Positions 39,433 to 62,606 of a stretch of DNA of 64,000 bases are shown here, in pieces. The number at the start of each line of letters is the position of its first letter. The stretch's first letter is position 1. The stretch lies in the IMG/VR virus record IMGVR_UViG_3300037264_003220, positions 26,281 through 90,280 of that record; one strand, given 5' to 3'. The notes under the pieces were generated by a model that had not been told where the DNA came from, ran no database searches, and worked only from the letters and a program-made list of their open reading frames with translations. The translations under genes and the position numbers were made by a program. This DNA comes from a virus.

Positions 39433-40455
39433 TTAGGAGCGAGCTATGGTGTCTTGAGTCCACAGATTTGAGAGGCGTTCGACCACGCTTCCCTGTGCGG
39501 TCTTTTCAGGACTCAGCACAACAGGGAGCACATCTCCTTCACCCTCGTCAAGGCTTCCATATGAGGCCATTCCTTCTTTCGGTGCAACTTCATTTTTCGG
39601 TTGTCCTGCTTGAGAATCTTTAGCTTCGATTTTCTCAACGATGTCCTGCAAGGCAAGCAAGGCTTTTTCGTCGAGACCAGAGAGAGCTTTACGGCAAGCT
39701 TCGAGTTCCGCTTCTTTAACGCCAAGCTCAGTCAGCTCATGGAGAATGCCGTCGATATGTTCGGCGACCACTCTTTGAGCGTCGTCTTCGGCTTTCTTTT
39801 TAAGTTCGGCTTTCGCTTGAGCGGCTTCTTTCTTCGCCAGTTCCGCTTCTCTCATGAGAACGTTCTTTTCTTCGAGCGCTCTCTTTAACAACTTCATCGG
39901 GCCATTTAGATTTTTGGATTTGAGGTCAATTGCTTTGGCAGGTTCGCCAACGCCACCCGCGTCGGGCAGACGATTGAAGAAGTCCTTGATTTTACGACCG
40001 TGCCCAGGAACCGAAGACGGCTTTTCAGCCAATTTTTTATTGGCAGCCACTTCTTCTTCGCTGAGAGCGCTCGTAACTCCGTCTTTGCTCGCGTCTTGAC
40101 GGGGAACTTCCTTCTCGTTGATAGCCCAGTTTGCATAATCAAAGTCTTTGTCGCCGGAAGTCGCAACGCGCTTCAGGTCGGCTTTGACAGTGACTTTCTG
40201 GCTATCCACCCATTTCAGGAATCCATTAAAGGTGTTGCCTGATTCTTTCTTAATCATTTCGCAAATCTGTTCGGGTTCCAAGACCTCAGATTGTTTGCCT
40301 TTCACGATAAGTTTCTGCACTTCAACAGGGACAATGTTTGCGGCTTTAATGACTTTAGCCCGTCCAGACCCTTCGCGAGCGATGAAGAAACTGCGCAGGA
40401 AAGAATCTTTCGGGTTTGCACCATCTTGAACAACGTATTTAAGTGAGAAGTCCAT
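39433..40455 (-). CDS. Scaffold-like protein
   Basis: Charged coiled-coil between protease and capsid genes; ends RLSNLW. Confidence 0.6.
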   Translation of the reverse strand: MDFSLKYVVQDGANPKDSFLRSFFIAREGSGRAKVIKAANIVPVEVQKLIVKGKQSEVLEPEQICEMIKKESGNTFNGFLKWVDSQKVTVKADLKRVATSGDKDFDYANWAINEKEVPRQDASKDGVTSALSEEEVAANKKLAEKPSSVPGHGRKIKDFFNRLPDAGGVGEPAKAIDLKSKNLNGPMKLLKRALEEKNVLMREAELAKKEAAQAKAELKKKAEDDAQRVVAEHIDGILHELTELGVKEAELEACRKALSGLDEKALLALQDIVEKIEAKDSQAGQPKNEVAPKEGMASYGSLDEGEGDVLPVVLSPEKTAQGSVVERLSNLWTQDTIARS

Positions 40456-42712: not shown

Positions 42713-42893
42713 ATTCGGTTATCTGCCTTCCTAATTTTTGTAATTCAACTGCCAATCCAGTCACTTCAGAATAAAAAAGACCCATGTCTTCATCATTCAA
42801 AATCCGCATCAACTGACCAAACGCTCTGTCGACCTGACTCATATAATGCAGACTGTCATTCTCAAATTCGTTCAAAGATTCCAAGCTGCTCAT
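42564..42893 (-). CDS. Hypothetical helical protein
   Basis: ATGA-coupled to the portal stop. Confidence 0.5.
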   Translation of the reverse strand: MSSLESLNEFENDSLHYMSQVDRAFGQLMRILNDEDMGLFYSEVTGLAVELQKLGRQITEYANEKRTKIFEDIDREAGRGVRESGKSAVGRQSQYKNPTGINTSAQPVS

Positions 42894-44785
42894 ATGGCTG
42901 GGCCTTCAGCGCCTGGAGTCGTCGGCAAGGTTTCCTTTTCTTCGGGAGATTCACCCGCGCCTGGCGCTCCTGGCGTCTTGGCTGGCTCAGACAATGGGGG
43001 AGGAAGTTCGCCCATCGGCCCGCCACCCATACCACCAGCCGGAGCTTCATTCAAATCCTTCAGTTTCGGCGGGCGCCGTCCGCCTGGCTTCTTGCTGTCT
43101 GCCTTCTCTTGAACCTGTTCTTTCATGGCAAGGTCATTCAAAATGTCTTGAACCTTCTCACCTTTCAGGAAGCGGTCGCGTAATTCCTTATTCTCAGCGT
43201 CATCAAGGTACGCTTTCTTAAGTTCCTGCCAGTCCTTGTCGAGATAGGTGGCTTCTTCCTTCTGGAACTGGCTCACTATGGTTTTGGATGTCAGCCCGAA
43301 CACGTCATTGATAATTTCCTGCGGGATGCGACCATCATTGCGCAAGCGTAACATCATCTCCTGCTCCTGCGTGTTATTGAGCAGGTTCAACTTCTGCCAG
43401 ATAAAGCTCGGAAGGAAATATTTTTCATCAGGAATGTTGCCGCCGCGAATCTTGATTTTATGCTCGACCTCTGCCTTGGTAGGACGAATCAACTGCTGCT
43501 CGCGAGCCATGGGAAGGAAAATCTTGTATTTGAAAATCTTTTCTATTTCAGCGCGGTCAGTGATGTAACGATGAAACAACATTTTCAGGTTCACGGTTTG
43601 TCCGGCATACGATGGCGCTTCCCCGCCGATAAGTGCTTCATTGGCAAACAAACCCACCATGATGCGCTTGCCCACCCAATCAAACCATGGAATCAAATTC
43701 TCAATCTTGTCCTTTGTCCCCACGTAATCCACGGTAAGACCAAAGTGATAGATGATGTTGTAATCAGGGTCATTCGCCGCCGACACAAGCAACTGTTTAA
43801 ATTTATCGAAATGCTTCTTTGATGGAATCCAGCCTTTGGACTCCGAGCCGAGCTTGAAAATTTTGATGGGGAACATGTGGCGGTCGACGAAAGTATATTG
43901 GAGGTAACGCAGCTTGTCTTCAAACAACAGGTCTTTCAAAACTCGCTTCACCAATGAAAGACCGCGCAACGTGTATTTCGATGTTCGATTCGCAAAGTGA
44001 ACGACCCTGTTCCCATCCAGCATATGCGGCTTGCCTCGCCCAACTGATTCGACGAATTGCTTCGGCATGAGTCCTACAATGGCTTTGTCTATGGGGTCAT
44101 TGGAGCCGACAATCTTTTGAAGCTCTGGGTCGGGGAGGAGAAAGTAAGCGGCAGAATTGGAAACATACGTCCTCTTGATGTCTATATATTCGGGAGGGTA
44201 TTGGTTCCATTCCTGCCACTCGAAATTAGTTTTGTCCCAGTTGCCATACCACACGGACTCGCCAAGCAAATGCTTGTCGCGGAGCATCCATACCGCCATC
44301 TGAAGCAGGTCAAGTTTTTCCTTGGTGTAATTGAAATAAGATTTAACTCCAGCATCATCAACATGAAGTTCAAAATCTGACAGCGGGAACGTGCTATGGA
44401 TGTCGATAACGGAGCCGACATAAGGTTGGAACTTGTAATAGTGACGAAGGCGCTTGTTGACTTCTTTGAGATTGTCTTCAGGAAAGAGAAGGAGAACGGT
44501 ATCCCATAATGGGTCGACATAAAGGAGAGGCGTGCGCACGGTATCTGACGCGGAGCTGCTTTGAAACAACTGCTGGAACTCAGCCGTTCTCTTGAACCCT
44601 TTTCCATCGCCAAGCTGACCGCCGGAGCCTATGCGGTTGAATCCCTGACTTCCTGTCCCATCGGCTTGCGCCTGTTCATAAAGCGCTTCTTTGGCTGATT
44701 CAAGCAGCTCTTGCTGGGCGGCGTTGCGATGTAGGTTCGCGCTTACGCCATCACCAACGAAATCTTCTTCAGCAGTTTTTGCCAC
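42890..44785 (-). CDS. Portal protein
   Basis: YYKFQPYVGSVIDIHSTFPLSDF, LLGESV, RVVHFA...RGLSLVKRV, PIKIFKLG; Pro/Gly-rich tail; upstream of the protease. Confidence 0.88.
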   Translation of the reverse strand: MAKTAEEDFVGDGVSANLHRNAAQQELLESAKEALYEQAQADGTGSQGFNRIGSGGQLGDGKGFKRTAEFQQLFQSSSASDTVRTPLLYVDPLWDTVLLLFPEDNLKEVNKRLRHYYKFQPYVGSVIDIHSTFPLSDFELHVDDAGVKSYFNYTKEKLDLLQMAVWMLRDKHLLGESVWYGNWDKTNFEWQEWNQYPPEYIDIKRTYVSNSAAYFLLPDPELQKIVGSNDPIDKAIVGLMPKQFVESVGRGKPHMLDGNRVVHFANRTSKYTLRGLSLVKRVLKDLLFEDKLRYLQYTFVDRHMFPIKIFKLGSESKGWIPSKKHFDKFKQLLVSAANDPDYNIIYHFGLTVDYVGTKDKIENLIPWFDWVGKRIMVGLFANEALIGGEAPSYAGQTVNLKMLFHRYITDRAEIEKIFKYKIFLPMAREQQLIRPTKAEVEHKIKIRGGNIPDEKYFLPSFIWQKLNLLNNTQEQEMMLRLRNDGRIPQEIINDVFGLTSKTIVSQFQKEEATYLDKDWQELKKAYLDDAENKELRDRFLKGEKVQDILNDLAMKEQVQEKADSKKPGGRRPPKLKDLNEAPAGGMGGGPMGELPPPLSEPAKTPGAPGAGESPEEKETLPTTPGAEGPAI

Positions 44786-47670: not shown

Positions 47671-47889
47671 TTAATAGTCTTGAATGATAGGCTGTTCGCG
47701 GCAAGAAATCCATTGCTTAGCTTCCGCAATAGGGAGTCCGCTTTTGATGAAAAAAGACAAAAGCTCTGCTTCGCTCTCATATTGAGTGCTGGCAAGAATT
47801 GTCCGAACCCAAGCCGTGCGTGTTGAGACCAAAGAGTTGTCACTCTTTTGAGAAGATTTCCGTTGGTCTGACACTTTAGTCCACTGCAT
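47671..47889 (-). CDS. Small protein with MQWTKVS leader
   Basis: AAGGA RBS; leader shared with neighbouring genes; internal TRTA. Confidence 0.55.
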   Translation of the reverse strand: MQWTKVSDQRKSSQKSDNSLVSTRTAWVRTILASTQYESEAELLSFFIKSGLPIAEAKQWISCREQPIIQDY

Positions 47890-48078: not shown

Positions 48079-48294
48079 TCAAACTCCCGCTGGTCTATAT
48101 ACTCCAACTCCGCTCAAATCCTGAACTCCTATCTGCCCGCCTGAGAACGCCATCGCAATTTCCAGAGGCGCTTTCGTATATTCCGTGTAAAGCGTTAAAC
48201 CAATCTGAGAAACGATGATGTCACTTAATGGTATCGGTGCAAATTCTTTCCCCGCTGGGCCGCCGCCAAAGTTGACGCCAGAATCGTCACTCAT
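48079..48294 (-). CDS. Hypothetical protein
   Basis: TAATG-coupled ORF. Confidence 0.5.
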   Translation of the reverse strand: MSDDSGVNFGGGPAGKEFAPIPLSDIIVSQIGLTLYTEYTKAPLEIAMAFSGGQIGVQDLSGVGVYRPAGV

Positions 48295-48689
48295 TAAAAT
48301 TCAGCCTGCCATTGTTCTTTGTACCAATCCAAACTCTTTGGCGCCAACTGTTTCCAACCTTCTTCTCCAGGCTCAATGCTAACTTTAACATTTGAAATAT
48401 GAACTGTCTGAGACTCCTGCTTGTAATCATCAGTAGAATCATCAAACACTTCGTATTCCACGGTAATGTCCTGGTCAGGGACAGTCACCATAACACCATC
48501 AATGCCCCAATCACGAACGTCAAGCTGCGCCGACCATTTCAACGTAATTGGCTTGACTGATTCCATCCCAGCTTCTTTATAATTCAATTCCACATCAGAC
48601 GTTTCAAAATTCATTGCGCTGGCTGAACGAACCCATGCTGGCGCCTGAAGTTCAGCAACAATATCTTTTGTTGTTCGAGTCCAGTCCAT
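48294..48689 (-). CDS. Acidic protein with MDWTRTT leader
   Basis: TAATG-coupled; WVRSA and YKEAG internal motifs. Confidence 0.6.
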   Translation of the reverse strand: MDWTRTTKDIVAELQAPAWVRSASAMNFETSDVELNYKEAGMESVKPITLKWSAQLDVRDWGIDGVMVTVPDQDITVEYEVFDDSTDDYKQESQTVHISNVKVSIEPGEEGWKQLAPKSLDWYKEQWQAEF

Positions 48690-48943
48690 TAACGACCTTC
48701 ACCGTGAAGCAAATCTTCGCCCGTGTTCTCATTGATAATAGTCCAACGTAAGTTATCATTTACCCATTCCTGTTCTTCCGTGGTCAAATCAAGACCACTA
48801 ATTAAATTGCGCCATTGCTCGCCGACAAAATCTTCAAGCGCTTCCGATAAAGCATAGGCAATTTCACGTTGTCGTATATCATCAAGTACGACTTCTGTTT
48901 CTTTTTCGCCTTCGGGTATTTCTTTAGCTGTTTTTGTCCACAT
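48689..48943 (-). CDS. Acidic small protein with MWTKTA leader
   Basis: Start lies within the 29-bp repeat. Confidence 0.65.
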   Translation of the reverse strand: MWTKTAKEIPEGEKETEVVLDDIRQREIAYALSEALEDFVGEQWRNLISGLDLTTEEQEWVNDNLRWTIINENTGEDLLHGEGR

Positions 48944-49183
48944 AAATTATCCCTTGCCTCCATATCCTCGTGCATCCAACTCTTGTTGTAATTGTTCAGT
49001 AGTCATATGTCGATAGCCTTGAAATCCATCACGCAAGCAACTCTCAATCCAATCCGGCGAACCTTGGTCAATCGCAATTTTCCAATCAGATTCAATCAGG
49101 ATATCGACGAGTTTTTCTTTGGCTTCATCAAATTCATTTTGTTTCTTATGAAGGGCTGTTTTTGTCCACATAAATTATCCCTT
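48927..49183. repeat. Perfect 29-bp direct repeat (48927-48955 and 49155-49183) encoding RBS + stop + MWTKTA
   Basis: gctgtttttgtccacataaattatccctt twice; minus strand reads AAGGGA TAA TTT ATG TGG ACA AAA ACA GC. Confidence 0.9.
48947..49171 (-). CDS. Small protein with MWTKTA leader
   Basis: Start lies within the 29-bp repeat. Confidence 0.65.
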   Translation of the reverse strand: MWTKTALHKKQNEFDEAKEKLVDILIESDWKIAIDQGSPDWIESCLRDGFQGYRHMTTEQLQQELDARGYGGKG

Positions 49184-50685: not shown

Positions 50686-51305
50686 CACAATCCTCCAGCC
50701 GTAACGCACACAGCTTTTTCTGGAACAATACCCTTGCTTAACCGCGACCTAATCGTTGAATGATTTACACCAAATTTTCTTGACCACTCCATTACCGTTT
50801 TTGATTGATTACCAATTTTTAAAATCCATGAATCACTTTTATTTCTATTTTGCTTCTCAACAGTAGACCAACGAATATTCCCTGGAACATAACCTTTATT
50901 ATTGTCAATACGGTCAAGAGAATATTCAGCGGAAGGACGACGACCGATTGTTTTTAAAATATAAGCTAAAAATTCTTTGTAAGAATTTCTCCATATTGGA
51001 TACATCGTTATTCCATTGCCGCCGTAATAAATAAAGTCTTTATTATTTCTATTCCCTGTTCTACATTTTATTCCATGCCACAGCCTATATTCAGGTGTCT
51101 TGCCCGACTCGCCGTGAGTTCGTCTTTTGATGTACTTGCATTGCTCACATGATTGTACGCCTTGCGCCAAATTCGCATAAAATACTTCTCGAACAATTCC
51201 ACAATTACATCGACAAAGCCATTTAGTATGACGACCGCTTGATTTGGCTCTCGCCACAATCACATAGCTGCCATAAACGTCGCCAATTTTGGCTTTGGTT
51301 TTCAT
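50685..51305 (-). CDS. HNH homing endonuclease
   Basis: WLCRCNCG, YYGGNGI, RPSAEYSLDRIDNNKGYVPGNIRWST. Confidence 0.88.
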   Translation of the reverse strand: MKTKAKIGDVYGSYVIVARAKSSGRHTKWLCRCNCGIVREVFYANLAQGVQSCEQCKYIKRRTHGESGKTPEYRLWHGIKCRTGNRNNKDFIYYGGNGITMYPIWRNSYKEFLAYILKTIGRRPSAEYSLDRIDNNKGYVPGNIRWSTVEKQNRNKSDSWILKIGNQSKTVMEWSRKFGVNHSTIRSRLSKGIVPEKAVCVTAGGL

Positions 51306-52909
51306 AATTCGCCAGCCGCTTCCGAATGGGCTTGCTGTCTTTCTCTGAAAAATGCCTTGGCAAATCCTTCTTCACTGACCGCGTAAATCTTATTGTCAGA
51401 GAATTTGGAAGTGTCATCAAACACCACTTGCCCTTCCGCGATAACAAACACCAAAAGAGCTGGCTTGGTATTGATTTCTTCCGGCAAGGAATTATCAATG
51501 ACATCCACGAGCACGGAAAGAATGGCGTTGGCGCTAAAGAATTGGTCGACATCTTGTCCAGGCACTTGAATATCATTCTCAAGCTTCTCCGACAACTCGC
51601 GACCATGGTATTTGAAAGAGCTTACCCGCATGATGAAATTCCGCAACACAGAATTTTTTTGCTTGATGTATTCAAGAACCTTCGCTACGTTTTCTGTTGC
51701 AGCCTTGTCCACGTCAACTTCTTCCTGCTGCGCGTCAAAGTATTCCGATGGCGTCACCTGGTTCTTTTCGTCATCAAACGGCTTGCTCTTGATGCCGTCT
51801 TCGACTTCCATAAGCTTTTCCGACATACCTGTTTCTGTCGCCTTATCCTGAGAGTCGGTCGCTGGCTTCAAAGTCGTGTCCGGCTCGCCAGGGACGAGAG
51901 CGGTGCGAATCCAATCTGCTTCACTCGCAGTAATGTGCCCAAACTCAAGCGCTCCCTCAATCATAATTCGCACGTCATTGGTTGACGTTCCTCTCATACT
52001 GAGCTGGCGATAAAGGCTGGAGGCTCGTTCGCTAAGTTGTTTTGCAGACCCTTCCCTGCCAACGATGCCGTTCTCCGCAAATTCATCAGCCAACTCAGGA
52101 AACTTATCAGCAAGCTGTTTGAAATAGGAATCCCACTCAGCAACCTCTCTCCAGCTCATGCTTTCTGCACTCTGCGCTGATTGCCAATCAACTGCAATCT
52201 GTCTGGCTTCTCCGGCTGTCGCCACTTCTTCAACTGGCTTTCTGGCAGATGCCTGCAAAAGTATGCTCGGATTTGAGTCCAGGGTTGACAGCTCCGGCCC
52301 TTCATCTTTGAAGTCTTTCATCACGTCTTTCGTGAGAGGTTCGTCGAACAACATGGCTTCCTTCACATGGTCTTTTAAGCCTGCGATAGCCTTGTCGGAA
52401 GTGATGTACATTTCCACGACATCACGCTGAGTATCTCCCTTCTGACCAAACAGGGCGAAACCCCAGTTGTAGGGATTGATGAAGTAGAAGTCATAAGTCT
52501 TGTCTTTGGCGACGCCCCAGCCCATGGATATGCCTGGAATCGTGGGAGGAGTCGATAAGAACTTGCCAGGGTTGAGGAGGTCATAAGGATGGATGCCAGT
52601 CAAGTGCTTGAACGCCCGCACGATTTCATCCCGCTGATAGCCCAAAGAAATCAAGTAGCCTTCCATGAACTTATACGAAAAGCGCCCCTCGTTAATCATT
52701 CTCTTGAGGTTTCTTTCCAACTCAATACGCTCAGGACGAGTGTTGGTTCCGGCATAAAAAACGTCAGCATACTGATGACTGATGTTCCAGTCACGCGCTG
52801 ACGCTTTTCGCTTGGTTTCTTCTTTGGTTTTCAAATCGTTAAGAACGGGGTCAAATTCTTCCCCATCAAAATTGACATCTTCTTTTTCAAGCCAAGTTGA
52901 CATTGCCAT
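51302..52909 (-). CDS. Acidic multi-domain hypothetical (putative internal head) protein
   Basis: CAGGAGG RBS near 52915; KRKAS, QAS and RTA motifs. Confidence 0.6.
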   Translation of the reverse strand: MAMSTWLEKEDVNFDGEEFDPVLNDLKTKEETKRKASARDWNISHQYADVFYAGTNTRPERIELERNLKRMINEGRFSYKFMEGYLISLGYQRDEIVRAFKHLTGIHPYDLLNPGKFLSTPPTIPGISMGWGVAKDKTYDFYFINPYNWGFALFGQKGDTQRDVVEMYITSDKAIAGLKDHVKEAMLFDEPLTKDVMKDFKDEGPELSTLDSNPSILLQASARKPVEEVATAGEARQIAVDWQSAQSAESMSWREVAEWDSYFKQLADKFPELADEFAENGIVGREGSAKQLSERASSLYRQLSMRGTSTNDVRIMIEGALEFGHITASEADWIRTALVPGEPDTTLKPATDSQDKATETGMSEKLMEVEDGIKSKPFDDEKNQVTPSEYFDAQQEEVDVDKAATENVAKVLEYIKQKNSVLRNFIMRVSSFKYHGRELSEKLENDIQVPGQDVDQFFSANAILSVLVDVIDNSLPEEINTKPALLVFVIAEGQVVFDDTSKFSDNKIYAVSEEGFAKAFFRERQQAHSEAAGEL

Positions 52910-53006
52910 TTCCTCCTGAAATATAGTGTATTTTTTACCATTTTTCCACAACAGCTTGTGGAATCTCTGTTATTCTCCACAACCTATTGGTGTTCTCCGT
53001 CGAGAC

Positions 53007-53195
53007 TTATTTTCCAGAGCAAGACTTCAGAGCCTGGAGAGACTTCTCGTCAAGCGCGGACTCAAGACTAAAACCTTTTTTCACAACTTTAAACTCTCGC
53101 CTCGGCGGTCGCGTGTCTCGTCTCACCATCGGCTGCGGCATCTTGCGAGCCACATTATTCAAGGCGTCTATGGCTTTGTCCAAACTTCCCTTCAT
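53007..53195 (-). CDS. Small hypothetical protein
   Basis: ATGA-coupled; starts MKGSLDKA, the same KGSLDKA string as a linker in the upstream giant protein. Confidence 0.5.
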   Translation of the reverse strand: MKGSLDKAIDALNNVARKMPQPMVRRDTRPPRREFKVVKKGFSLESALDEKSLQALKSCSGK

Positions 53196-56100
53196 ACTGG
53201 CATGGCTTCCTTTTCTTTGATTGTGAACGTGGCGCCCGTGGGCTGGTCATATGTGTCCAGAATAACGGCGTCGTATTTCTTATCTTCCGCGATAAGCGCC
53301 GCGTGCCGCTTCACTATCTGCGCTTTGTCGCCGTTATACAACCACACTTTGTCGCCTTCACGAAACTTATACCCAGCGTTCTTAAAGAACTCTGCCGTGG
53401 ATTGGATTTTCAAGTTCTGCTTCTTCCGTTTCAGCCTGCGGGATTCTTTGTCAAGCTCCCACGCGCTGCCGGACAAGTCAGAGCTTTTGAATTGGTCGAA
53501 GTATTTGGCATAACGCTTTTGAGACGAATTAACTTCTTTGTCTTCCGGCGCCAATGTAAACACGGTCTTGCCTGTTTCGGCAAGGTCTTCAAGAGGAGAC
53601 CAAACTTGATAATTCGGATACCACCAAATATTGACGCCTTCTTCGGCGCGTAAATGACCAGCGTCATCAAGCACTGCATCAGAAAGAATCGGAGCCGACG
53701 TAAGAGCGCCGATGTCTTCTGGGTTGACCCACATTAAACCAGCGTCAGTGACAGGCTCAAAAACTTCATACATGAGGTTATCACTCGTATCGCCTGCCGC
53801 AACTTTTTCTTTTAATTCAGCTTGACCTTCAGCGTCAATGGAAATTTCTAAATCACTATTTGGTAATTGCTTCCAAACCGTAATCCAATACGATGCTTTC
53901 TTATCCAACGCCGCATGACGTTCCGGCGGGATACGGTCTGTCTCCCATATTTTATTGATGGGACGCGTCACGATTCCGCTGCCATCTTCCATATCAATTT
54001 TCATATTGCCTTCGGCGTCCGGCTCCGATACTGCCCATCCATACCAGCCATCGACTTCAAGATACTTGCCAATCCACGGCCCGCGCTTTGGGTCTATGTG
54101 GGCAGTTTTTTCCACGGCGCCACCAGCTTGTCTAGTCACGACCACATCATGCCCTTCATGTTCACTCTTTCTATTTGGGAAGAAAGGCATTTCACAAGTC
54201 CGACACCAATATTCATCAGCGCCAGCTTGACGCGCCACGACAGATTGCTTCTGCACGAATTCCATGGCTTGGTCAATCATTTGTTGACGACGTTCGCCTT
54301 CGGCAGCATCAAACGCTCCACCTGTCCACATGGACAAAGCGCTTTCCACGGCTTTGCGTTCGTCGCCCTTATCAAGCTCAAGGCATTCTTTGTAAACATC
54401 TAGAAAGGAAACTTCCTCGGCGTTCTTGCCAAATGAAGCCGTCTTCGTCGCAATGGTATCAAGCAACTTATGCACGGCTTCGGTCACGTCTTCGCCGCGC
54501 ACATACGCTGCTTCAGCAACTTTATAAACCTTTCCAATGTCCATGATATTGATTTGATATCCATACACGGCATCCTGAACAACTCTGTCCAATTCAGCCT
54601 GTTGCTTCTTGGGCAACTTGGATTCTCTTACCGCAGCTATCTTGGTGACTTGCGAAGTTTCGCAATGAGGGCAATAGATAGTTTCATTGGCGCGATTACG
54701 AACAAATTTATATCCACATTTTTCACATTGAAAATTCGTAGGCTCGCCCGCCGCTGCCGTTACTTCTGTCTTCGCCGCTTCCTCAGCTGCTTTGGCTTTT
54801 TCTTCCTTCTTGGTCTTGCGCGTCTCCTGCTGGTCTTTAAGACGCTTTTCCAATTTCTCAAGCGCGTCCACTGTTGAAGCAATCTCAGATGGGTCGGCTT
54901 TGTCCACGTCCAAATCCTTCAGTTTCCGGCGCAACGACTTCACTTGGTCAGACAAGCCAGCTCTCCGGCTCCCGCCAAGCTTCTTATTTACGGCGGCGGC
55001 AATTTCTTGAGCATTGTCTTCCATCCAACGAACGAATGCAGGATTATCCAAATCGCCAACAGCATCCGCTCCGCCGCTCACTTCACTCATTGCCCAATTA
55101 TAAAGCCCTTCATCATTGAGCACCCATTCCGTGAGCGAGTCCAAATCATTGGGAGCAATTTCAAGAATAGCCTTCCGAAGCGCACCCGTTTCATCGAACC
55201 CTTCTTCGGCAGTATCCGCCAAGATGCCTTCCCATTCTTTTTGTGCTTCTGCTTCAGACGCATATCCCTTTGATTCAACAAATCCCTGTTCACCTGTCCA
55301 AAGAATGATAAACGGATTCGCCTCGAACCATTGCTTTTCTTCGGCAGTAAGCGGAGCAACTTCAAGCTCGGTCGCAACCTTCTCGGCTTCCTCGGCAGTC
55401 ACACTGCGTAACAGACCATACCAGCCGCCTGTTTCAACGCTGCCAGCTTCTTCGCCAAGTCCATCCAAACTCATAGTCCAAAGGATTTCGTCAATGATGG
55501 TGCTGAACTTTCCTGGCCCCTTGCGTCTGATTCCTTCTGCCGCCGCTTTGTCCAATGAGCCTTTGACTGTATGCTCGCGGTCTAACTTAGCCCACTCCGC
55601 ATACGGCATATCATAAAGAGTTTTGGGGTCGACGCCCATTTTCTGAGCAACCTCATCTTTGCGTTCCTTCTGATAAATCATAGAGTCCTTGTCTTCAATC
55701 CCATAAAATCGTGCCTGCTTCATACTGCCCTCCAAATAAAGTTTGTTGTCGTCTCCAATGACAAGATTTATTTCACCAAACGAATGCGCAATCTCAGTCA
55801 GCTTATCACCAACTTCGCCAAGACCTCTATCCCAAAACCCAGCACCATGCCCATTGCGAGTCAACCAGAAGTCATGCCCAGCCTGTTCCTCATCAATACC
55901 ATTCAGCAGCTCGCCCGCTTTCTCTTTGAACGCCGCGCAATCTGCCTTGGCTTTATCCATACTCTCCGGCGATATGTCGGCGAAATCATAATTCTTGTCA
56001 AGCGGGTCTCCGCCTTGCTCATCAGATTGGTCTAACTCAGACCACAACGCCGCTTCAAGATAGGCGCCAACGAACTTGCCCAAGCCTTGATACGATTCAT

Positions 56101-58447
56101 CGGCAGCTGTCTTTGTTGTGCCGCCGCCAGCAATAAGGTCAGCCACTTCGCGGAACGCATCAACCTCGACATCTTTCTCTAAAGACAAAGCATGTTCGCC
56201 ATTCACGCTCACATCAATGGCGCCATCATCCGCATAAGAGAATGTAAACTGCCAATCTTCCGTATCAATCGTTCCTGCTGGAGGATTCGGCAAACGCATC
56301 TCGTTCATGTAATCAAAGACTTTGGGCGGCAGCTGCTCAAAACGCAAAGTGACAGAGCCTCCCTGCGCAGCCGTCTTCTGTTTCACTTCCTTGCGAACCT
56401 TGCTGTTGCAACGCTCGCAAAAGTCAGAGCCATCCTCTTTAATGCCCAAGCCGCATTGAATACACAGATTGTCCTGCGCACTGATAATCTTCTTTTCCTC
56501 AAACTCTTTGCGATGCTCGCGCTCTTGCTCAATGGTATGCTCAAGCACTTTCTGAAGGTCTGGGCTGGCGTCTTCCTTCTGCCCACGGTATTCATCTATG
56601 GCAGCTTGCTCAAGCTCCACATCGCGTTTCACTATTTCTTCGTCGCGGCTGGCGGTCTTTGAACTTGCTTCTGTGCCCATATCGCTTTCGGCTATGATTT
56701 CGGCAACAATTTTATTGGCGTCAGCACCGTAATGCTCAGAAACTTCCTTCATCCCGCCACCGTAATAAGACTTCACAGCATCTTCAAGTTGTTGTGCTGA
56801 ATAATCTTTCAAATCAATATCGAATAACACTCCATGGTCAAACACCATAAACTCATTTTCAGATATTTTCTTTACCCACTGATTCGTATCTTCATCTGTG
56901 CGAGTAAACCCATTTTGTTTGAAATAAGATTCGCCGTACATTCCTTCATCGCGACTGGCGGTCTTGTTCCCATGCTTCCTACCAAGATATTCACCGAAAT
57001 TACCATCAATGCTGGCGTTGCCGTGGTCAGATATCTGCCACACATTCGGGTAATAATTCTCCTTCTGCATCCAAGCATAAATGTCGCCATAGAACTTGTC
57101 CCAATCATCATGCAGCTTGGCGATTTTTTTGCCGCCTGCGTAAGCGACAGTCTCGGCGCCCAACGTGCCTTCGCCTTGAATAATGACATCTTCTTCAGAT
57201 GGGCCGCCATTTATCCCCATGTCATCTATAATTTCGTCATCAGGGATGCCATGTTCGTCGGCGAAGTCGGCTTTCTTATTTAATGACGCTTTCTTGGTAT
57301 CCCGCCACGTCGACCAATCCTGAAAATACTCAGCCGCCATTTCCATGGTCACATCAATACCAGCTTCATTGTCAGCGATATCTCGGATATAACTAATCAA
57401 ATCATCTTGGTCAGGAACCATATGCGCCTTGGCAAAATAATCCTGTGACTCTTGAAGAACCTTGTCTGTCCATTCTGGGTCGCCAACGCCAGGCGCGTCA
57501 GCGTCTTCGCCCATTTCATCAAGCGCCGTCACGAGCCGCTTCACCATACCAGCTTTCTTCTCGCCGCCTGGTTTAGAGCCATAATAAAAATAAGCCACGG
57601 TCACTTGGTTGTTTTGCATATCTGGTTCTTTAACGGCATACCCACTCCACGCCGTCACGGTATCAAAACCGATATACCCAAGATTCGCCAACTCGTCATT
57701 CTCCACGACCACGAACTCTCCCAAGTCAAACACGTCGCCATCAAACCTAAAGAAATTCCCCTGACCAGATTCTTCTGATTTAAAGTAATCAACCGTTTTC
57801 TTTTCTTCATCAGTCAATTCGTCAAAGTCAACCAACGGCACGGTTTCTTCCTTTTGAATGATGAGTTGGTCATCGGCTTGTTTCTTCATGCCAGCTTCTT
57901 TCTTAAACGAGCATTGCACTTGCTCCGGCTTCAGGTCTTTATGTTCAGCCAAATATTTCTCTTTGGCTTCTTGACAGGTCTTCGCCCATGTCGTGGTTGC
58001 CTTGTATTCCTTATCAACAAAGATTTCTATTTTGGGATGGCTGCGTTTATCGCCGTAGGCAGCTTCTAACTTCGGCAATCTTCCCGTGCCTTCACACGCC
58101 GGACATTCCTTGCCATCCATATGCCCTTCACCGCCGCATTCGGTGCAGGTTTCCCAGTCCTTGGCAACCTTTGTCCAGGAAGCAGCCTTCACAATCTTAA
58201 GATGATATCGCGCACCACAATCTTCACATTCCTCCACCTTGGAATAAGCGTCAGGGGAATTGAAAGTTGTTTTATGACCAAGCTCGTTATGTTTCTGATA
58301 AGGAGTTTTCTCGCTCGCCGACGCCATGCAACCGCAAGCACCGTTGCACTTGGCGCATGTTTCCGATTCCTGCTTTATCTTGGCAGGAGCCATTCTGTCT
58401 TTCGGTTCGTTCATCAATCGTTTCTTCGGCGGAATTAAATTATCCAT
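53192..58447 (-). CDS. Giant acidic multi-module protein (~1751 aa), putative head-packaged polyprotein
   Basis: Start MDNL after AAAGGAG; many short unrelated modules (Zn ribbons, ferritin-like helices, SH3-like) joined by [KR]-x-A linkers. Confidence 0.7.
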   Translation of the reverse strand: MDNLIPPKKRLMNEPKDRMAPAKIKQESETCAKCNGACGCMASASEKTPYQKHNELGHKTTFNSPDAYSKVEECEDCGARYHLKIVKAASWTKVAKDWETCTECGGEGHMDGKECPACEGTGRLPKLEAAYGDKRSHPKIEIFVDKEYKATTTWAKTCQEAKEKYLAEHKDLKPEQVQCSFKKEAGMKKQADDQLIIQKEETVPLVDFDELTDEEKKTVDYFKSEESGQGNFFRFDGDVFDLGEFVVVENDELANLGYIGFDTVTAWSGYAVKEPDMQNNQVTVAYFYYGSKPGGEKKAGMVKRLVTALDEMGEDADAPGVGDPEWTDKVLQESQDYFAKAHMVPDQDDLISYIRDIADNEAGIDVTMEMAAEYFQDWSTWRDTKKASLNKKADFADEHGIPDDEIIDDMGINGGPSEEDVIIQGEGTLGAETVAYAGGKKIAKLHDDWDKFYGDIYAWMQKENYYPNVWQISDHGNASIDGNFGEYLGRKHGNKTASRDEGMYGESYFKQNGFTRTDEDTNQWVKKISENEFMVFDHGVLFDIDLKDYSAQQLEDAVKSYYGGGMKEVSEHYGADANKIVAEIIAESDMGTEASSKTASRDEEIVKRDVELEQAAIDEYRGQKEDASPDLQKVLEHTIEQEREHRKEFEEKKIISAQDNLCIQCGLGIKEDGSDFCERCNSKVRKEVKQKTAAQGGSVTLRFEQLPPKVFDYMNEMRLPNPPAGTIDTEDWQFTFSYADDGAIDVSVNGEHALSLEKDVEVDAFREVADLIAGGGTTKTAADESYQGLGKFVGAYLEAALWSELDQSDEQGGDPLDKNYDFADISPESMDKAKADCAAFKEKAGELLNGIDEEQAGHDFWLTRNGHGAGFWDRGLGEVGDKLTEIAHSFGEINLVIGDDNKLYLEGSMKQARFYGIEDKDSMIYQKERKDEVAQKMGVDPKTLYDMPYAEWAKLDREHTVKGSLDKAAAEGIRRKGPGKFSTIIDEILWTMSLDGLGEEAGSVETGGWYGLLRSVTAEEAEKVATELEVAPLTAEEKQWFEANPFIILWTGEQGFVESKGYASEAEAQKEWEGILADTAEEGFDETGALRKAILEIAPNDLDSLTEWVLNDEGLYNWAMSEVSGGADAVGDLDNPAFVRWMEDNAQEIAAAVNKKLGGSRRAGLSDQVKSLRRKLKDLDVDKADPSEIASTVDALEKLEKRLKDQQETRKTKKEEKAKAAEEAAKTEVTAAAGEPTNFQCEKCGYKFVRNRANETIYCPHCETSQVTKIAAVRESKLPKKQQAELDRVVQDAVYGYQINIMDIGKVYKVAEAAYVRGEDVTEAVHKLLDTIATKTASFGKNAEEVSFLDVYKECLELDKGDERKAVESALSMWTGGAFDAAEGERRQQMIDQAMEFVQKQSVVARQAGADEYWCRTCEMPFFPNRKSEHEGHDVVVTRQAGGAVEKTAHIDPKRGPWIGKYLEVDGWYGWAVSEPDAEGNMKIDMEDGSGIVTRPINKIWETDRIPPERHAALDKKASYWITVWKQLPNSDLEISIDAEGQAELKEKVAAGDTSDNLMYEVFEPVTDAGLMWVNPEDIGALTSAPILSDAVLDDAGHLRAEEGVNIWWYPNYQVWSPLEDLAETGKTVFTLAPEDKEVNSSQKRYAKYFDQFKSSDLSGSAWELDKESRRLKRKKQNLKIQSTAEFFKNAGYKFREGDKVWLYNGDKAQIVKRHAALIAEDKKYDAVILDTYDQPTGATFTIKEKEAMPV

Positions 58448-58460
58448 TGAAATCTCTCCT

Positions 58461-58925
58461 TTAATGCAAAGCTGCGACAGCTTCCTGATACATCGCGCTC
58501 GCCTCTTGTTCGCTGTTAAAGCTCCCAAGGTTCTTATTTTTTCCCGAAAATCTTATTTGGGCAATCCATTTGTTACGTTTTTTATCCCAAGTCACGCCAA
58601 TGTATTTTGAATAAGTTTTACCATTCCTTCTCGCAGTTCGATTAGAACTATTGACCCGTTGAGTCACAATTCTTAAATTTTCTCTCTGATTATTTAAGCC
58701 GTCTCCATCCTTATGGTCAACCATCATGCCTTTGATACGAGGGAACCCAATAATAAAATGGTGCATATATTCTGCTCTTTGAACCCCATCAACAGTATTT
58801 ACATGACGCGCAGCATAAAAAACATTTCGACTCTTAACGGCGAACCAATTTAATGAATTCAAAATATCAAAAATACTATCATCAACTATTGCCACTTTAC
58901 CTTTGGTAAGTTCAATTTCTTTCAT
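58461..58925 (-). CDS. HNH-AP2 homing endonuclease
   Basis: MHHFI...VDHKDGDGLNNQRENLR; SKYIGVTW...WIAQI...LGSF..E.EA AP2 domain. Confidence 0.9.
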   Translation of the reverse strand: MKEIELTKGKVAIVDDSIFDILNSLNWFAVKSRNVFYAARHVNTVDGVQRAEYMHHFIIGFPRIKGMMVDHKDGDGLNNQRENLRIVTQRVNSSNRTARRNGKTYSKYIGVTWDKKRNKWIAQIRFSGKNKNLGSFNSEQEASAMYQEAVAALH

Positions 58926-61900
58926 CGGCTATTTCCCCATCAAGAACATCAAATGCCTGCGCTTCCGTAATTTTAAATTGACCCATTAAATCTTCAACGA
59001 TTTCATTCTCATTCATAGTGCCCAGCTTAACTAAATCTTTTGCTAATTGCTGTGTACTATTAACAGGGATAGTAGGCATAGGAGCGCCAGCATTTGGAAA
59101 AACATCCTTTGTCCCTGTCTCAACCGCATCTTCAAAACGGTCTCTATCTCTTGCCGCAGGCGATATGGTTTGTGAACCATCGTTTCTTTCTGGAGCAGTA
59201 TCAGTATGAGCATGTTGAGTCGCTGGCTTCACCCACCCAAGCTGAACCAGATAAGCGTAAAGGTCTTTCTCGGTTTTGTCGGCGCCGTATCCTGGTGCTG
59301 ACTCAGCATGATAACGCTTCGCAACTGTCTCAGCCTGCTTCTCGTTCAGGAACGGGGTTTGGTTCGGGTCGACTTCGTACCCCATCACGTCAAAGGCAAG
59401 ATTGAGCAGATTTTCTTTATGGTCTACAGCGTCCGCCTTCACCTTCAACACCCGCGCGTCGGCACGCAGAGACGCTTCCAGCTCAAGCAGAGCAACAAAT
59501 TCTTTATCGCTCGCGCACTTCCCTGGAATCCATTCAAACCGACTCCTGTCTCCACGCGCCCGCGCCGTCTTCCAATGCGGATGGTTATTAATGAGAGCGA
59601 AATAACTCTGCCATGTTTTTTCCACGGCAGCATTTATATGGAGATTAGGAACCTTATCGGATTGTGATAACTTTGACTTATCCACAGAGTTATCAGACTT
59701 ATCCACAGGCACGAAGCCGCTGCCCCGCTTCACTGCCATCATACGGCTGATTATCTTGGGCTGGGGGCGCGGGGTCGGTGCGCTTGGATTGGTCTTGATG
59801 ACAGGCTCCTGACCAGGAACGAGAGCGGGTTCTTCGTCGGACGAGGACGGTGCGCTGGGTTGTTCCGGCTGGGCTGGTTTGGCAATCTCCTCCACAGGAG
59901 TTGGCGGCATGACGGGCTTTGCTTGCGGCCCAACGCCTTCCACGTCCTCCGGCTTGGGTTCTTTGGGCGGCGGCGCCTCTATGCCAGTCTGCTTGGACAG
60001 CTGGTCATGAATCTTGCGCACGTCTTCCTTGGTATATTTCAATTGGTTGCGGGACAGCCAGGTATAAATCTCATGTTGAATCCCTTCAAAGTCCATGCCC
60101 TTCAGATTTTCTATGGTGATGCCGTCCAAGATACGGTTTGCCACGTACACGGGCTGAAGGCTTATAGCGGCTTCAAATTCAAACTCGGCATCATGTTTTT
60201 CATCCTCGTCAATTTGATTATTCACCTCTATTTCGCAATCTGCGCACATGCCATGACTGGTGCGCTCCGCATTGGGGTCGCCCTTCAAATGCTTGCCGCA
60301 CCATGCGCACACGGTTTTGGTGGGAATCTGCGCCGCCGTGCGCCCAAAGAAATAATGAATATCCTTTGCGCCATCGTAAGCCCAAACCAATGACGCATCC
60401 TCCGCCTTCCAAAAGCTCACAGCCTTGCTCGTTGGCACAGCACTCATGTCACCCACCGCGTCAACAAACTCCGGCTCGGTCATCTCCACCCCGCTCTCCA
60501 CAGCCTGAGCCATCTCTGTAGCGTCACCAAATGGCGAGGATGGGTCTTCAAGAATATCCACGCACGTGCCCACGAAACCAAACTGGGCGCCCGTTTTCTT
60601 TTGACTCGCCCACTTTTTCATGTCCTCGATAGACACGTCCACATCAGCAAGGTCATCCCAATATTCCTGACCATCCTTGCCAGGGTTGACGCCGGATTCA
60701 ATAGTGCCGGATAAGGTCAAGCGCATCTCCCCGTCCTTCACGCCCGTCGCCTTATTCAACAATTCCACGAACACATCCGCGAACACCATGCCTTCAGCCG
60801 AATCAAGATTGGTCAAGACCACATTGGTTTTGTAATTGGCGGGGTCAAATTCAAAATACATCGACACAAGGTCGGGCAGCACGCGCTCAACATTGGTGGT
60901 CACTTCGTCGTTCCATTTCCACGCCGGATTCTTGTCGGCTGGCTCCGTTGGCGATGCGGGACGGGGGTCGGAAGGCGACAGCACAGTCAACTTTTGGGGG
61001 GTCGTCTCATTATCTGTCGCAAGCGATTCATCATCAAGCTCTTTCAACGGTTCGTCCACCGCCGCCGCTGGCATTGGCGGTTTGTCGCCACGTTCAATCG
61101 CTTTGGGTTGATTATCAATAACTCTTGGTTCACCTGGTTCCTGCGCCGTCCGTGTCCAGCTGGCTTGGCAATTGATACAGCCCCCGTCGTCGTTTATCTC
61201 AATAGGCGGCTTGGGAGACCCACAATCTTTACAATACACGGCTTCCGCCGCACGCCAAAATGTTCCACGTGGAACATTTTTCGACGCCCTTTTGTCCCCC
61301 ATATCCGTAGAAGATTCGTCCAGCACTTCCTCCACTTTGTCAACCTGACTGACATCCAATGAAGGGTTCTCGTCCGCATCTCCAAGTATTTTTTCCAGGT
61401 TCTTCCACAACCAAATATAGCCGAACTTCTGGAGGTATTTGAATGTGATGTTTTCCTCCGAATCCGGCTCATAGTCTACATCCCGCTCATCAGAGACTTC
61501 CTGCGCTTTATCCATAATAGCAATCAGCTCGTTCTCTAATTCCTCGGTACGTTCTTGTAGGCGGTTCTGAAATTTTGAACGGGAGGCAGAGTCCATGGTC
61601 TCAATAGCTTCTTTCAGAGCATCAATGTTTTTGATGTCTCTCTTTGCGTTCCCGATAGCCACGTCAAGTTCCTGCACCATGCCTTCAGCATCATCAATGA
61701 TTGACGAGTAAACCGACTCAGGGTCGAAATCAGTATCCACGGTACGCGGCGCCTGTTCCCACGTATCCGTTTTCAAATCATAAATTCCATCCGTGGTATG
61801 CGCCTGCATATGCGGAGTCTCAAACGAAACCTCGAAAGGATGTTCAGTATCCAGCACTTTCCATTGCTGGTCACGCATTTCATCCTTATACGAATCCAAG

Positions 61901-62181
61901 ATTTCATCGAGGTCGTCTTGAGAAAGACCAGGATATTCCGCTTTAAGCTTATCCCAATCCACCACGATATGAAGGTCAAGGTCGGAACGGCGATTCCATT
62001 GAAACGAAGTGAGAGAGCCGAGGATGCGCATGGTTTCAATCCAGGGCACGTCCTGAAGATAGGGTTCTATTTTAGATAGGATGTCTTCTTTGACAGCCTG
62101 CTTAAGGGTTCCGTCACTCTCCCAAATGGATTGGTCGAGTCCGCTCATGCTGTAATCGAGAACGTTGCCTTGTTTTTTCAT
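58912..62181 (-). CDS. Multi-module protein with N-terminal Pol-beta-type nucleotidyltransferase domain
   Basis: ILGSLTSFQW...SDLDLHIVVD (GS + DxD) and GIYDLKTDTW; followed by Zn ribbons and modules separated by KRA/RTA/KTG motifs. Confidence 0.7.
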   Translation of the reverse strand: MKKQGNVLDYSMSGLDQSIWESDGTLKQAVKEDILSKIEPYLQDVPWIETMRILGSLTSFQWNRRSDLDLHIVVDWDKLKAEYPGLSQDDLDEILDSYKDEMRDQQWKVLDTEHPFEVSFETPHMQAHTTDGIYDLKTDTWEQAPRTVDTDFDPESVYSSIIDDAEGMVQELDVAIGNAKRDIKNIDALKEAIETMDSASRSKFQNRLQERTEELENELIAIMDKAQEVSDERDVDYEPDSEENITFKYLQKFGYIWLWKNLEKILGDADENPSLDVSQVDKVEEVLDESSTDMGDKRASKNVPRGTFWRAAEAVYCKDCGSPKPPIEINDDGGCINCQASWTRTAQEPGEPRVIDNQPKAIERGDKPPMPAAAVDEPLKELDDESLATDNETTPQKLTVLSPSDPRPASPTEPADKNPAWKWNDEVTTNVERVLPDLVSMYFEFDPANYKTNVVLTNLDSAEGMVFADVFVELLNKATGVKDGEMRLTLSGTIESGVNPGKDGQEYWDDLADVDVSIEDMKKWASQKKTGAQFGFVGTCVDILEDPSSPFGDATEMAQAVESGVEMTEPEFVDAVGDMSAVPTSKAVSFWKAEDASLVWAYDGAKDIHYFFGRTAAQIPTKTVCAWCGKHLKGDPNAERTSHGMCADCEIEVNNQIDEDEKHDAEFEFEAAISLQPVYVANRILDGITIENLKGMDFEGIQHEIYTWLSRNQLKYTKEDVRKIHDQLSKQTGIEAPPPKEPKPEDVEGVGPQAKPVMPPTPVEEIAKPAQPEQPSAPSSSDEEPALVPGQEPVIKTNPSAPTPRPQPKIISRMMAVKRGSGFVPVDKSDNSVDKSKLSQSDKVPNLHINAAVEKTWQSYFALINNHPHWKTARARGDRSRFEWIPGKCASDKEFVALLELEASLRADARVLKVKADAVDHKENLLNLAFDVMGYEVDPNQTPFLNEKQAETVAKRYHAESAPGYGADKTEKDLYAYLVQLGWVKPATQHAHTDTAPERNDGSQTISPAARDRDRFEDAVETGTKDVFPNAGAPMPTIPVNSTQQLAKDLVKLGTMNENEIVEDLMGQFKITEAQAFDVLDGEIADERN

Positions 62182-62184
62182 ATT

Positions 62185-62430
62185 TTAATTCCAGTCCACT
62201 TTAACCTTGGTAAATCCCACGGGTCGCCTTGCATACAATCCTGGCTCCAACCTAACCACTTCAACCCATATCTCGCTGTCCGGCTTGTCAAATTCAACCA
62301 CGGGCCAGAACTCGCCCTTGATGTACCGCCGCATGGTCATTACTGATGGGATGGTATCGAACAACCACTCATCATGCGCCAGTACACGGTCAAAAATAAC
62401 CCGATATCGTTCCGGCAGCTGAACGTTCAT
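62185..62430 (-). CDS. Hypothetical protein
   Basis: TAATG-coupled ORF. Confidence 0.5.
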   Translation of the reverse strand: MNVQLPERYRVIFDRVLAHDEWLFDTIPSVMTMRRYIKGEFWPVVEFDKPDSEIWVEVVRLEPGLYARRPVGFTKVKVDWN

Positions 62431-62606
62431 TAATAATTCGACAACACCGCGCCAATCTTGTCCAGCTCATTGATGATGCCGTCCAAATCAGCAGGGCTTG
62501 GATTCCCCGCGTCCAAAGCATCAGCGATGAGTCTCAACTGCTGCGCCATCCCAGGCAAAGTGTCTGGGTCTCCACCAAATGTCTCCGCTTGTTTTGTCCA
62601 GCTCAT
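62430..62606 (-). CDS. Small protein with MSWTKQA leader (58 aa)
   Basis: GGAGGA RBS at 62611-62616 places the start at 62606. Confidence 0.6.
   Translation of the reverse strand: MSWTKQAETFGGDPDTLPGMAQQLRLIADALDAGNPSPADLDGIINELDKIGAVLSNY

Follow-up and report, generated by a model that had tools for sequence, protein, structure and literature searches.

The prohead protease of phage T4 cuts after glutamate. Internal proteins of T4 are targeted to the core by an N-terminal capsid-targeting sequence of ~10 amino acids (aa), which is removed by gp21 (PMC9958956). The protease of SPN3US cuts nine head proteins at A-x-E, and in SPN3US and phiKZ this one motif is used in the ejection proteins as well as in portal, capsid protein and the protease (gp175/gp245) (PMC10052503). 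Polyvalent proteins, described by Iyer, Burroughs, Anand, de Souza and Aravind in 2017, combine unrelated domains, from two to 15 or more, within a single polypeptide of a phage or other mobile element, including conjugative elements (PMC5512222). The locus considered here lies in a stretch of 64,000 nucleotides (nt), termed the window, which covers positions 26,281 to 90,280 of the virus record IMGVR_UViG_3300037264_003220. The IMG/VR record comprises 90,280 bases, and is rated 53% complete; nearly all genes lie on the minus strand. Gene 53192..58447 of the window encodes a giant protein that is, by comparison with its relatives, a concatenated and shuffled chain of ~23 small independent modules between two conserved ends. 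With a probability of about 50%, the gene is read as encoding a late, head-associated cargo polyprotein, which would be packaged, cut at the junctions between modules, and ejected in pieces with the DNA. The protein is thus proposed to work, by analogy, like the internal-protein system of T4 without being homologous to it, the precedents of the cargo model being the T4 capsid-targeting leader and the one-motif rule of SPN3US and phiKZ.

The open frame runs on the minus strand, for which the first-pass annotation had given no strand, and encodes 1751 aa (196 kDa, isoelectric point 4.7). It starts with an ATG at 58447 behind the ribosome-binding site (RBS) AAAGGAGAG and stops at 53192-53194. Open frame, RBS and composition bear out the claim that an acidic protein of ~1751 aa is encoded here by a real gene. 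The gene and three of its parts are as follows.

53192..58447, minus strand: giant modular gene with ~23 modules, based on open frame, RBS, composition and the shuffled relatives P0003-P0005.
58313..58447, minus strand: conserved N-terminal segment and candidate loading handle (residues 1-45), containing a Cys cluster and, at 18-20, an R-x-A; 64% identity to P0004 1-43 and a match to P0005 15-74.
58040..58162, minus strand: Zn-finger module, residues 96-136, DnaJ CxxCxGxG-like; PF00684 at E 3.6e-4, below cut-off; phrog_3931; present in P0003 at 238-287 and in P0004 at 633-690.
53195..53503, minus strand: conserved C-terminal domain, residues 1649-1751; candidate loading handle; 63-69% identity to the C-terminal ends of P0003-P0005, also present in P0014 and P0061.

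Relatives of the giant protein were sought among 5.8 billion proteins. Three giants, P0003-P0005 (1970, 2320 and 2444 aa), were found on contigs of ~145 kb. Four further giants have only the phrog_1915 module in common with the protein, and DUF2958 is carried by only one distant match, P0007. BLAST alignment with the three relatives showed that the ends (1-43 and 1636-1750) are conserved and that the blocks between them occur in a different order or set. The phrog_1915 module, for example, occupies residues 789-905 here and residues 873-991, 1210-1325 and 181-301 in P0003-P0005, and a coiled-coil module present in one copy here is present in two copies in two of the relatives. At least five modules are independent homology units, each with relatives of its own. 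This shuffling, together with the stand-alone homologues described below, upholds the earlier claim that many small modules are concatenated in one protein. A megablast search of the gene against phage genomes and a scan of viral contigs with the whole protein returned no match. For two of the relatives, viral contigs could be retrieved, and these preserve the gene order; compared with the window, identity is 92% for the capsid protein and 62-69% for the protease.

Exchange of modules also extends to a neighbouring gene:

51302..52951, minus strand: neighbouring 549-aa protein with a conserved K-x-A-S near residue 50 and an inserted module at 237-316, which is 42.5% identical to P0005 2193-2272.

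The insert of 80 residues is missing from both orthologues of the 549-aa protein. As it corresponds to a module of a relative's giant protein, modules evidently move between carrier proteins.

Few modules of the giant protein could be named. No family above the Pfam cut-offs was found in a search at E≤1, and the weak matches below cut-off comprise Zn-finger/Zn-ribbon, MutS_III, COQ7 and ADK-lid. Among the module labels of the first-pass annotation, the DnaJ-type finger and the CxxC ribbons were recovered only below cut-off (E 3.6e-4 for the finger and 0.01-0.08 for Zn ribbons), the label 'ferritin-like' goes back to a COQ7 match at E 0.65, and for the label 'SH3-like barrels' no SH3 family in Pfam matched the protein. 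PHROGs yielded one strong match, residues 789-905 with positions 9-140/141 of phrog_1915 (E 2.2e-33); the other matches are weak and concern small families, none with an assigned function. A peptidase domain was found neither by Pfam nor by PHROGs.

In these respects the giant protein both resembles and departs from the polyvalent proteins. Like them, it combines many unrelated domains in a very large phage polypeptide beside virion genes, with a content that varies among relatives, and polyvalent proteins are likewise predicted to be packaged and delivered with the DNA (PMC5512222). In contrast, the published repertoire (MuF, ART, zincin-like peptidase, ParB-like, methylase, helicase) has no match in the giant protein at E≤1, and the modules are small (30-130 aa) and lack an assigned function. 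Autoproteolysis by an internal metallopeptidase was proposed for polyvalent proteins, whereas the junctions of the giant protein match a motif of the head proteins; neither a junction peptide nor a matching single-gene leader is described in the part of the source at hand, and its main text does not contain the word 'linker' (PMC5512222).

Several modules exist elsewhere as separate proteins. A tblastn search with the whole protein gave matches in 459 of 50,697 phage records. All 60 matches listed fall within residues 749-906 and lie under short genes annotated as 'hypothetical protein'. The proteins P0011 (117 aa) and P0012 (136 aa) are stand-alone forms of this phrog_1915 module. Against cultured phages, residues 1-775 matched one record and residues 911-1751 matched two. 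A word-index search for shorter proteins found only three. By contrast, phmmer with residues 911-1751 against 1.84 billion representatives gave 687 matches at E≤0.001. Among the 150 phmmer matches listed, 62 proteins of 103-159 aa span ~1523-1637 nearly whole, 14 proteins of 116-157 aa span ~968-1087, three proteins of 62-70 aa span 1274-1337, and single proteins span 1343-1400 and the C-terminal domain. At least four modules have stand-alone phage counterparts of 60-160 aa, as follows.

55721..56104, minus strand: module 782-909, phrog_1915 (E 2.2e-33; tblastn), a stand-alone gene in cultured phages.
55178..55540, minus strand: module 970-1090, stand-alone elsewhere (14 proteins of 116-157 aa, projected C-terminal end at a median of 1091).
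54446..54634, minus strand: helical module 1272-1334, a stand-alone protein of 62-70 aa elsewhere (P0049, P0155 and P0162 match end to end).
53516..53893, minus strand: module 1519-1644, a stand-alone protein of 103-159 aa elsewhere (62 stand-alone matches; AlphaFold).

The ends of the stand-alone proteins were projected onto the giant protein with HMMER coordinates; starts based on MAFFT were discarded, as the first Met had been pushed to column 1. For the 1519-1644 family (n=62), the N-terminal end projects to a median of 1521.5 (interquartile range 1518-1523) and the C-terminal end to 1636, with [KR]-x-A at 1516-1518. The 970-1090 family (n=14) ends at 1091 and has a variable N-terminal end (median 960.5), with [KR]-x-A at 967-969 and 1091-1093. 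The 1272-1334 family (n=3) projects to 1277 and 1341, with [KR]-x-A at 1269-1271 and 1335-1337. AlphaFold modelling of residues 1490-1660, using 60 sequences of which 59 are stand-alone homologues, gave a mean predicted local distance difference test (pLDDT) score of 82.8. The pLDDT is 46-59 at 1490-1519, 90-98 at 1520-1629 (with one 10-residue block at 87), and 59-70 after 1640. As it is high only between the junctions, these flank the fold of module 1520-1629. A model of residues 911-1751 without an alignment reached a mean pLDDT of 42. The likeness to small stand-alone phage proteins, which the first-pass annotation had suggested, is thereby confirmed for 782-909, 970-1090, 1272-1334 and 1519-1640. 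That annotation had also stated that linkers inside folded domains, or homologues ignoring the boundaries, would speak against its proposal; wherever this could be applied no refutation emerged, and the junctions lie outside the modelled fold. In the Sphingobium phage Lacusarx, the homologue of module 1519-1644 belongs to a series of very small hypothetical genes close to the end of the genome, which may be the sort of place where accessory early genes sit.

The junctions themselves carry a short peptide motif. All 17 linkers named by the first-pass annotation were present in the contexts of a [KR].A scan of the giant protein, at residues 87/93, 183/189, 297, 385/391, 495, 597, 691, 779, 910, 967, 1161, 1269, 1335/1341, 1406, 1439, 1447 and 1516. 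The protein contains 34 copies of [KR].A, compared with 21.2 ± 4.1 in shuffled sequences (one of 1000 shuffles reaches 34). The refined pattern [KR].A[ASGDE], derived after viewing the same data, is present 24 times compared with 9.0 ± 2.9 (0/1000). Two of the three relatives contain 37 copies of [KR].A versus 26.0 (12/1000) and 51 versus 34.1 (3/1000). Among the four giants, 87 of the 164 internal ends of high-scoring segment pairs (HSPs) lie at most 8 residues from [KR].A, where randomly placed ends score 42.3 ± 5.7 and never exceed 61 in 2000 trials; these ends are not mutually independent, as one junction can count several times. Ten control tripeptide patterns score between 10 and 51 near the same ends. 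At the 66 sites near breakpoints, S, A and G prevail three to four places ahead of the basic residue, K (17), A (8), T (8) and E (6) are the commonest residues between the basic residue and Ala, and Ala is followed by A, S, D, E, K or G. Herpesvirus assemblin cuts Ala|Ser, and a cut between Ala and Ser or Ala here would resemble it.

Repeats at the DNA level that recombine were considered as an origin of the junctions and were ruled out. The codons vary at 23 junctions, no DNA repeat is common to them, and the gene contains only one 26-nt repeat pair, with 88% identity. Selection therefore acts on the peptide.

The motif is also found at module borders in other proteins. A set of 30 other long proteins was assembled, consisting of cluster representatives with ≤50% identity that embed one of three well-sampled modules. 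Within a border window of 22 residues, [KR].A was present at the projected N-terminal border in 16/30 and at the projected C-terminal border in 16/30, with a chance of 0.24 per window and a binomial P of ~4e-4 on each side. As about half of these proteins have a border motif, the architecture is not peculiar to one contig. Even stricter junctions were observed in the uncultured-phage giants P0117, P0125, P0042 and P0154, which contain 6-8 nearly invariant six-residue basic-x-Ala junctions per protein, much stricter than those of the window. A scan of viral contigs with P0154 gave no match.

Downstream of the giant gene, on the same strand, follow the genes for portal, protease, scaffold-like protein and capsid. 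In the order of transcription, a gene for a 1089-aa protein is followed by an HNH endonuclease gene, the giant gene, the gene of the 549-aa protein, three HNH-type genes with small genes, and the portal gene; the prohead protease, a 340-aa scaffold-like protein, a 156-aa protein and the major capsid protein then follow. This arrangement is syntenic in the two recovered relatives and similar in a distant phage, G003. The principal head genes and their motifs are listed below.

42890..44785, minus strand: portal (phrog_16240), with K-R-[TQ]-A near residue 65 ahead of the conserved body, from alignment with a relative.
40477..42111, minus strand: prohead protease, 544 aa (phrog_18299, E 2.6e-21), with the catalytic part at ~52-225 and a C-terminal extension behind [KR]-[TS]-A at ~272-274.
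39433..40455, minus strand: scaffold-like protein of 340 aa with a conserved K-T-[AS] near the C-terminal end, from its position between the protease and capsid genes and from alignment.
37895..38893, minus strand: major capsid protein (phrog_2522), with an N-terminal extension of ~49 aa and R-[TS]-A at 42-44, a site kept in two relatives.

Judged by homology, gene 40477..42111 encodes a prohead serine protease of the phage G gp19 / phrog_18299 kind: residues 51-222 align with gp19 at 36% identity, and the H-D and S-M-G-C blocks correspond in the two proteins. Its [KR]-[TS]-A site at ~272-274 is conserved in the two relatives. Directly behind the catalytic Ser block, at residues ~150-175, lies a Cys-x-x-Cys ... 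Cys-x-His cluster, which is also present at the aligned position of gp19 and may be a structural metal site typical of proteases of this kind; a search of the protease sequence against solved structures gave no match at E≤1. In the capsid alignment, residue 7 of the phage G capsid protein (gp27, 282 aa) corresponds to residue 56 of the window's protein. The phage G protein thus starts at window residue ~50, so that the capsid protein of the window has an extra N-terminal extension of ~49 aa, and the motif lies five residues ahead of this starting point. The nearest cultured relatives of capsid and protease are Bacillus phage G, cluster C mycobacteriophages and some Erwinia phages, with 25-36% identity. 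In the three close phages, the motif is kept at capsid 42-44, portal ~65, the C-terminal end of the scaffold-like protein, protease ~272-274, and ~50 of the 549-aa protein.

The same pattern recurs in G003, whose capsid protein is only 28% identical to that of the window. This phage encodes giant and medium modular proteins with junctions of the K-[KT]-T-A type upstream of the portal, and the catalytic part of its protease is placed between K-x-A at residues 30 and 297. In addition, a 754-aa protein contains nine such sites and a 119-aa gene has a K-T-A leader.

A comparison with the phiKZ-like phages is instructive at this point. One short protease motif is common to portal, capsid and protease in those phages, and a large mass of protein is ejected, as is also suggested for the phage of the window (PMC10052503). 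They differ in that, in the part of the source at hand, the substrates lose propeptides instead of being shuffled strings of modules, and in that the motif ends in Glu (PMC10052503).

This setting bears on two other explanations of the giant gene. In the first, its product remains in the cytoplasm as a polyprotein or multidomain protein that does not enter the capsid, and any processing would be due to a protease of the host or to a different one of the phage. Synteny beside the portal in two close relatives and a distant one, the conservation of both ends around a variable interior, and a junction motif in common with head proteins argue against this improbable alternative, as does the lack of a peptidase domain in Pfam and PHROGs searches of the protein. 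It gains from the fact that packaging is a step that we infer, from the stand-alone homologues elsewhere, which are not head genes, and from the four HNH endonuclease genes that interrupt the region and show its gene order to be fluid. In the second explanation, the giant protein is a sacrificial core or scaffold protein, cut only for clearance to make room for DNA, and its modules have no role in the host. T4 provides a model, as gp22, gp67 and gp68 are broken down into small peptides, which exit the prohead (PMC9958956); furthermore, many of the pieces here would be small (30-60 aa) and the gene is located among head-assembly genes. Scaffolds, however, are conserved and mostly helical, whereas Zn ribbons and globular domains in shuffled order make up the interior of the giant protein. 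Hundreds of other phages encode these domains as separate accessory genes, one of which sits in the tiny-gene array of Lacusarx, and a separate scaffold-like gene is already present between the protease and capsid genes. A purely sacrificial role consequently has little likelihood.

A counterpart of the junction motif is found at the start of single genes. This leader is a short conserved N-terminal sequence common to otherwise unrelated head-region proteins, with the consensus M-x(0-1)-W-T-[KR]-x-A. Leader-type starts number 15 in three phages, with six in the window and nine in the two relatives. The window genes are 48947..49171, 48689..48943, 62430..62606, 33576..35003, 48294..48689 and 47671..47889. 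All begin with M, up to one residue and W-[TS]-[KR], which is followed by x-A in the first four; 48294..48689 and 47671..47889 have T and S, respectively, in place of the leader Ala. Starts of the form M-x(0-2)-W-[TS]-[KR] were found in 4 of 106 called genes compared with 0.13 expected (Poisson P ~1e-5), the 106 genes being the analysis's own crude gene calls, and alternative start calls add two leader genes. The head-gene region contains all six; none is found among tail or early genes. The nine starts in the relatives have good ribosome-binding sites and are likewise all in the head region. Some leader genes are mutual orthologues, and most are unrelated beyond the Ala. Those described individually are given here.

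48689..49171, minus strand: two adjacent small genes (84 and 74 aa), both starting M-W-T-K-T-A and unrelated after the Ala.
62430..62606, minus strand: 58-aa gene with leader M-S-W-T-K-x-A and an orthologue in relative G002.
33576..35003, minus strand: 475-aa protein downstream of the capsid gene, leader M-Q-W-S-K-K-A, with the second-highest refined-motif excess in the genome.
47671..47889, minus strand: 72-aa gene with the leader variant M-Q-W-T-K-V-S.

The two adjacent genes contain an exact direct repeat of 29 nt (48927-48955 / 49155-49183), which extends over RBS, start codon and leader; beyond the Ala codon the two sequences diverge. Save for this pair, leader codons differ among copies. 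The acidic 475-aa protein contains four copies of the refined motif versus 1.0 expected, has leader-bearing orthologues in both relatives, matches no PHROG family, and is a candidate for a further cargo or head-internal protein. W-T-[KR]-x-A also occurs internally, namely in the giant protein at residues 91-95, where it precedes the Zn-finger module 96-136, in the upstream 1089-aa protein, and in the giants of the relatives. The simplest account is that tagged single genes were fused in frame, the conserved unit ending at the Ala. When the giants were compared by BLAST with all open reading frames of the fetched relatives, only the insert of the 549-aa protein was in common; no homology is thus detectable between the small leader genes of the window and modules in the giants of the relatives.

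Taken with the sites in the head proteins, the leader matches the expectation for a prohead-protease site combined with a T4-like loading tag. IPI-III and Alt of T4 are otherwise unrelated, non-essential head-cargo proteins with a short leader that the prohead protease removes, and they are injected with the DNA (PMC9958956); the leader genes here would follow the same scheme. The two systems differ in that each T4 cargo has a separate gene, while ~23 are joined in one chain here, and in that the leader of the window comprises 5-7 residues of another sequence. The presumed cut would be placed after Ala behind a basic residue, unlike that of gp21, and the protease is of the phage G gp19 kind. 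No homology to the T4 leader, internal proteins or gp21 was found, and PHROGs gives no T4 internal-protein family.

Several observations weigh against the cargo reading. [KR].A is not enriched in P0003 (27 versus 21.7; 124/1000 shuffles), 77 of the 164 HSP ends are not near the motif, and 14/30 embedded modules in other long proteins have no motif on a given side, where other linkers may be in use. The motif also occurs inside folds, at 1548-1550 in a helix with pLDDT >90 and at 1023-1025. The tripeptide alone therefore cannot define a site, and exposure or further residues must matter. In the protease, the motif at residues 445-447 is not kept in the relatives, and with capsid proteins that are 92% identical across the three close phages, shared sites in this group carry little weight. 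The stand-alone homologues in other phages carry no leader, so that modules function without need of packaging. Module function likewise could not be assigned: Foldseek against the PDB gave no match at E≤0.001, BFVD only uncharacterised viral proteins, and Atlas viral clusters without names or no match. Finally, pieces of 30-60 aa might leak from the prohead.

Some of these points favour an uncleaved multidomain 'polyvalent' protein, perhaps packaged, in which [KR]-x-A stands for flexible linkers that are relics of the leaders of fused genes. The motif is loose and also found within folds, P0003 lacks enrichment, internal full W-T-K-x-A junctions resemble former gene starts, and polyvalent proteins of the N4 virion RNA polymerase type are packaged unprocessed (PMC5512222). 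A relic should decay, yet the motif is kept with varied codons at 23 junctions. It is also present at module borders in 16/30 unrelated long proteins and at conserved places in capsid, portal, scaffold-like protein and protease, which are not fusion products, and on stand-alone genes the leader would have to serve some purpose itself. This explanation is accordingly considered rather unlikely.

For the cargo polyprotein, we infer cleavage, packaging and injection, which could proceed as follows. The conserved N- and C-terminal ends would bring the chain into the assembling prohead, where the phage-G-type protease (40477..42111) would cut after the Ala of exposed [KR]-x-A junctions. The same protease would trim the capsid N-terminal extension, the portal, the scaffold-like protein and its own C-terminal extension at like sites. 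The freed modules would be retained in the capsid and pass into the host together with the DNA, such that proteins made elsewhere from small separate genes would already be present at infection. The leader M-x(0-1)-W-T-[KR]-x-A would be the single-gene form of the tag and bring single-gene proteins into the prohead, and in-frame fusion of leader-bearing genes would create internal junctions.

A wider proposal can be put forward only tentatively. W-T-[KR]-x-A / [KR]-x-A might serve as a portable 'load-and-cut' tag in a large phage group, most of it uncultured, whose head proteases are of the phage G type, the tagged genes being injected cargo with cassette exchange at the tags. A small gene gaining the tag would then become virion cargo, either as a separate gene or fused between two handles. 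Cassette exchange would give each phage a kit of ~20 or more pre-made early-type proteins, injected before phage gene expression.

Other features of the region concern its mobility and the neighbouring modular protein:

58912..62181, minus strand: second modular protein, 1089 aa, directly upstream of the giant gene, with an internal W-T-R-x-A, from alignment with the 1077-aa and 544-aa forms of the relatives.

The N-terminal and internal parts of this protein are variable. Its residues 1 to ~195 match phrog_36119, were read as a nucleotidyltransferase in an earlier note, and are missing from the 1077-aa orthologue of one relative; the other relative has the 544-aa form. In G003, a 695-aa protein just before the portal, in the position of the 1089-aa protein, has an N-terminal part that is nucleotidyltransferase-like by eye. 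The portal gene of G003 (L015 14745-17897, plus strand) encodes 1050 aa with a large insertion in the middle, which by eye from the translation looks like an intein with a homing-endonuclease part. The HNH/Vsr-type endonuclease genes amid the head region of the window (58461-58925, 50685-51305, 49175-49900 and 47035-47658, all minus strand) are probably homing endonucleases; phrog_374 and phrog_3377 are each matched by two of them (206 and 207 aa).

Literature searches on polyvalent proteins, capsid targeting, prohead protease motifs, polyproteins and the processing of multidomain virion proteins yielded no published description of this architecture. Published cleavage sites for a protease of the gp19 kind were not found either, for example in the accessible part of the phage G paper (PMC12484599). 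Polyvalent and T4-type cargo are known, and what reads as new here is the basic-x-Ala motif, the phage-G-type lineage and the matching single-gene leader.

If the cargo reading is true, one gene would show which small 'hypothetical' phage proteins are required at the first moment of infection, before transcription. The module families, phrog_1915 and three other widespread ones, would rank first among candidates for counter-defence or host takeover. The one-motif rule of T4 and phiKZ would gain a second protease specificity, basic-x-Ala, unrelated to the first. Injected proteins of uncultured phages would become predictable from sequence, and if the wider tag proposal holds, the tag could be used to load foreign proteins into such capsids. 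Furthermore, very large phage open reading frames without recognisable domains would be explained by the in-frame fusion of tagged cassette genes.

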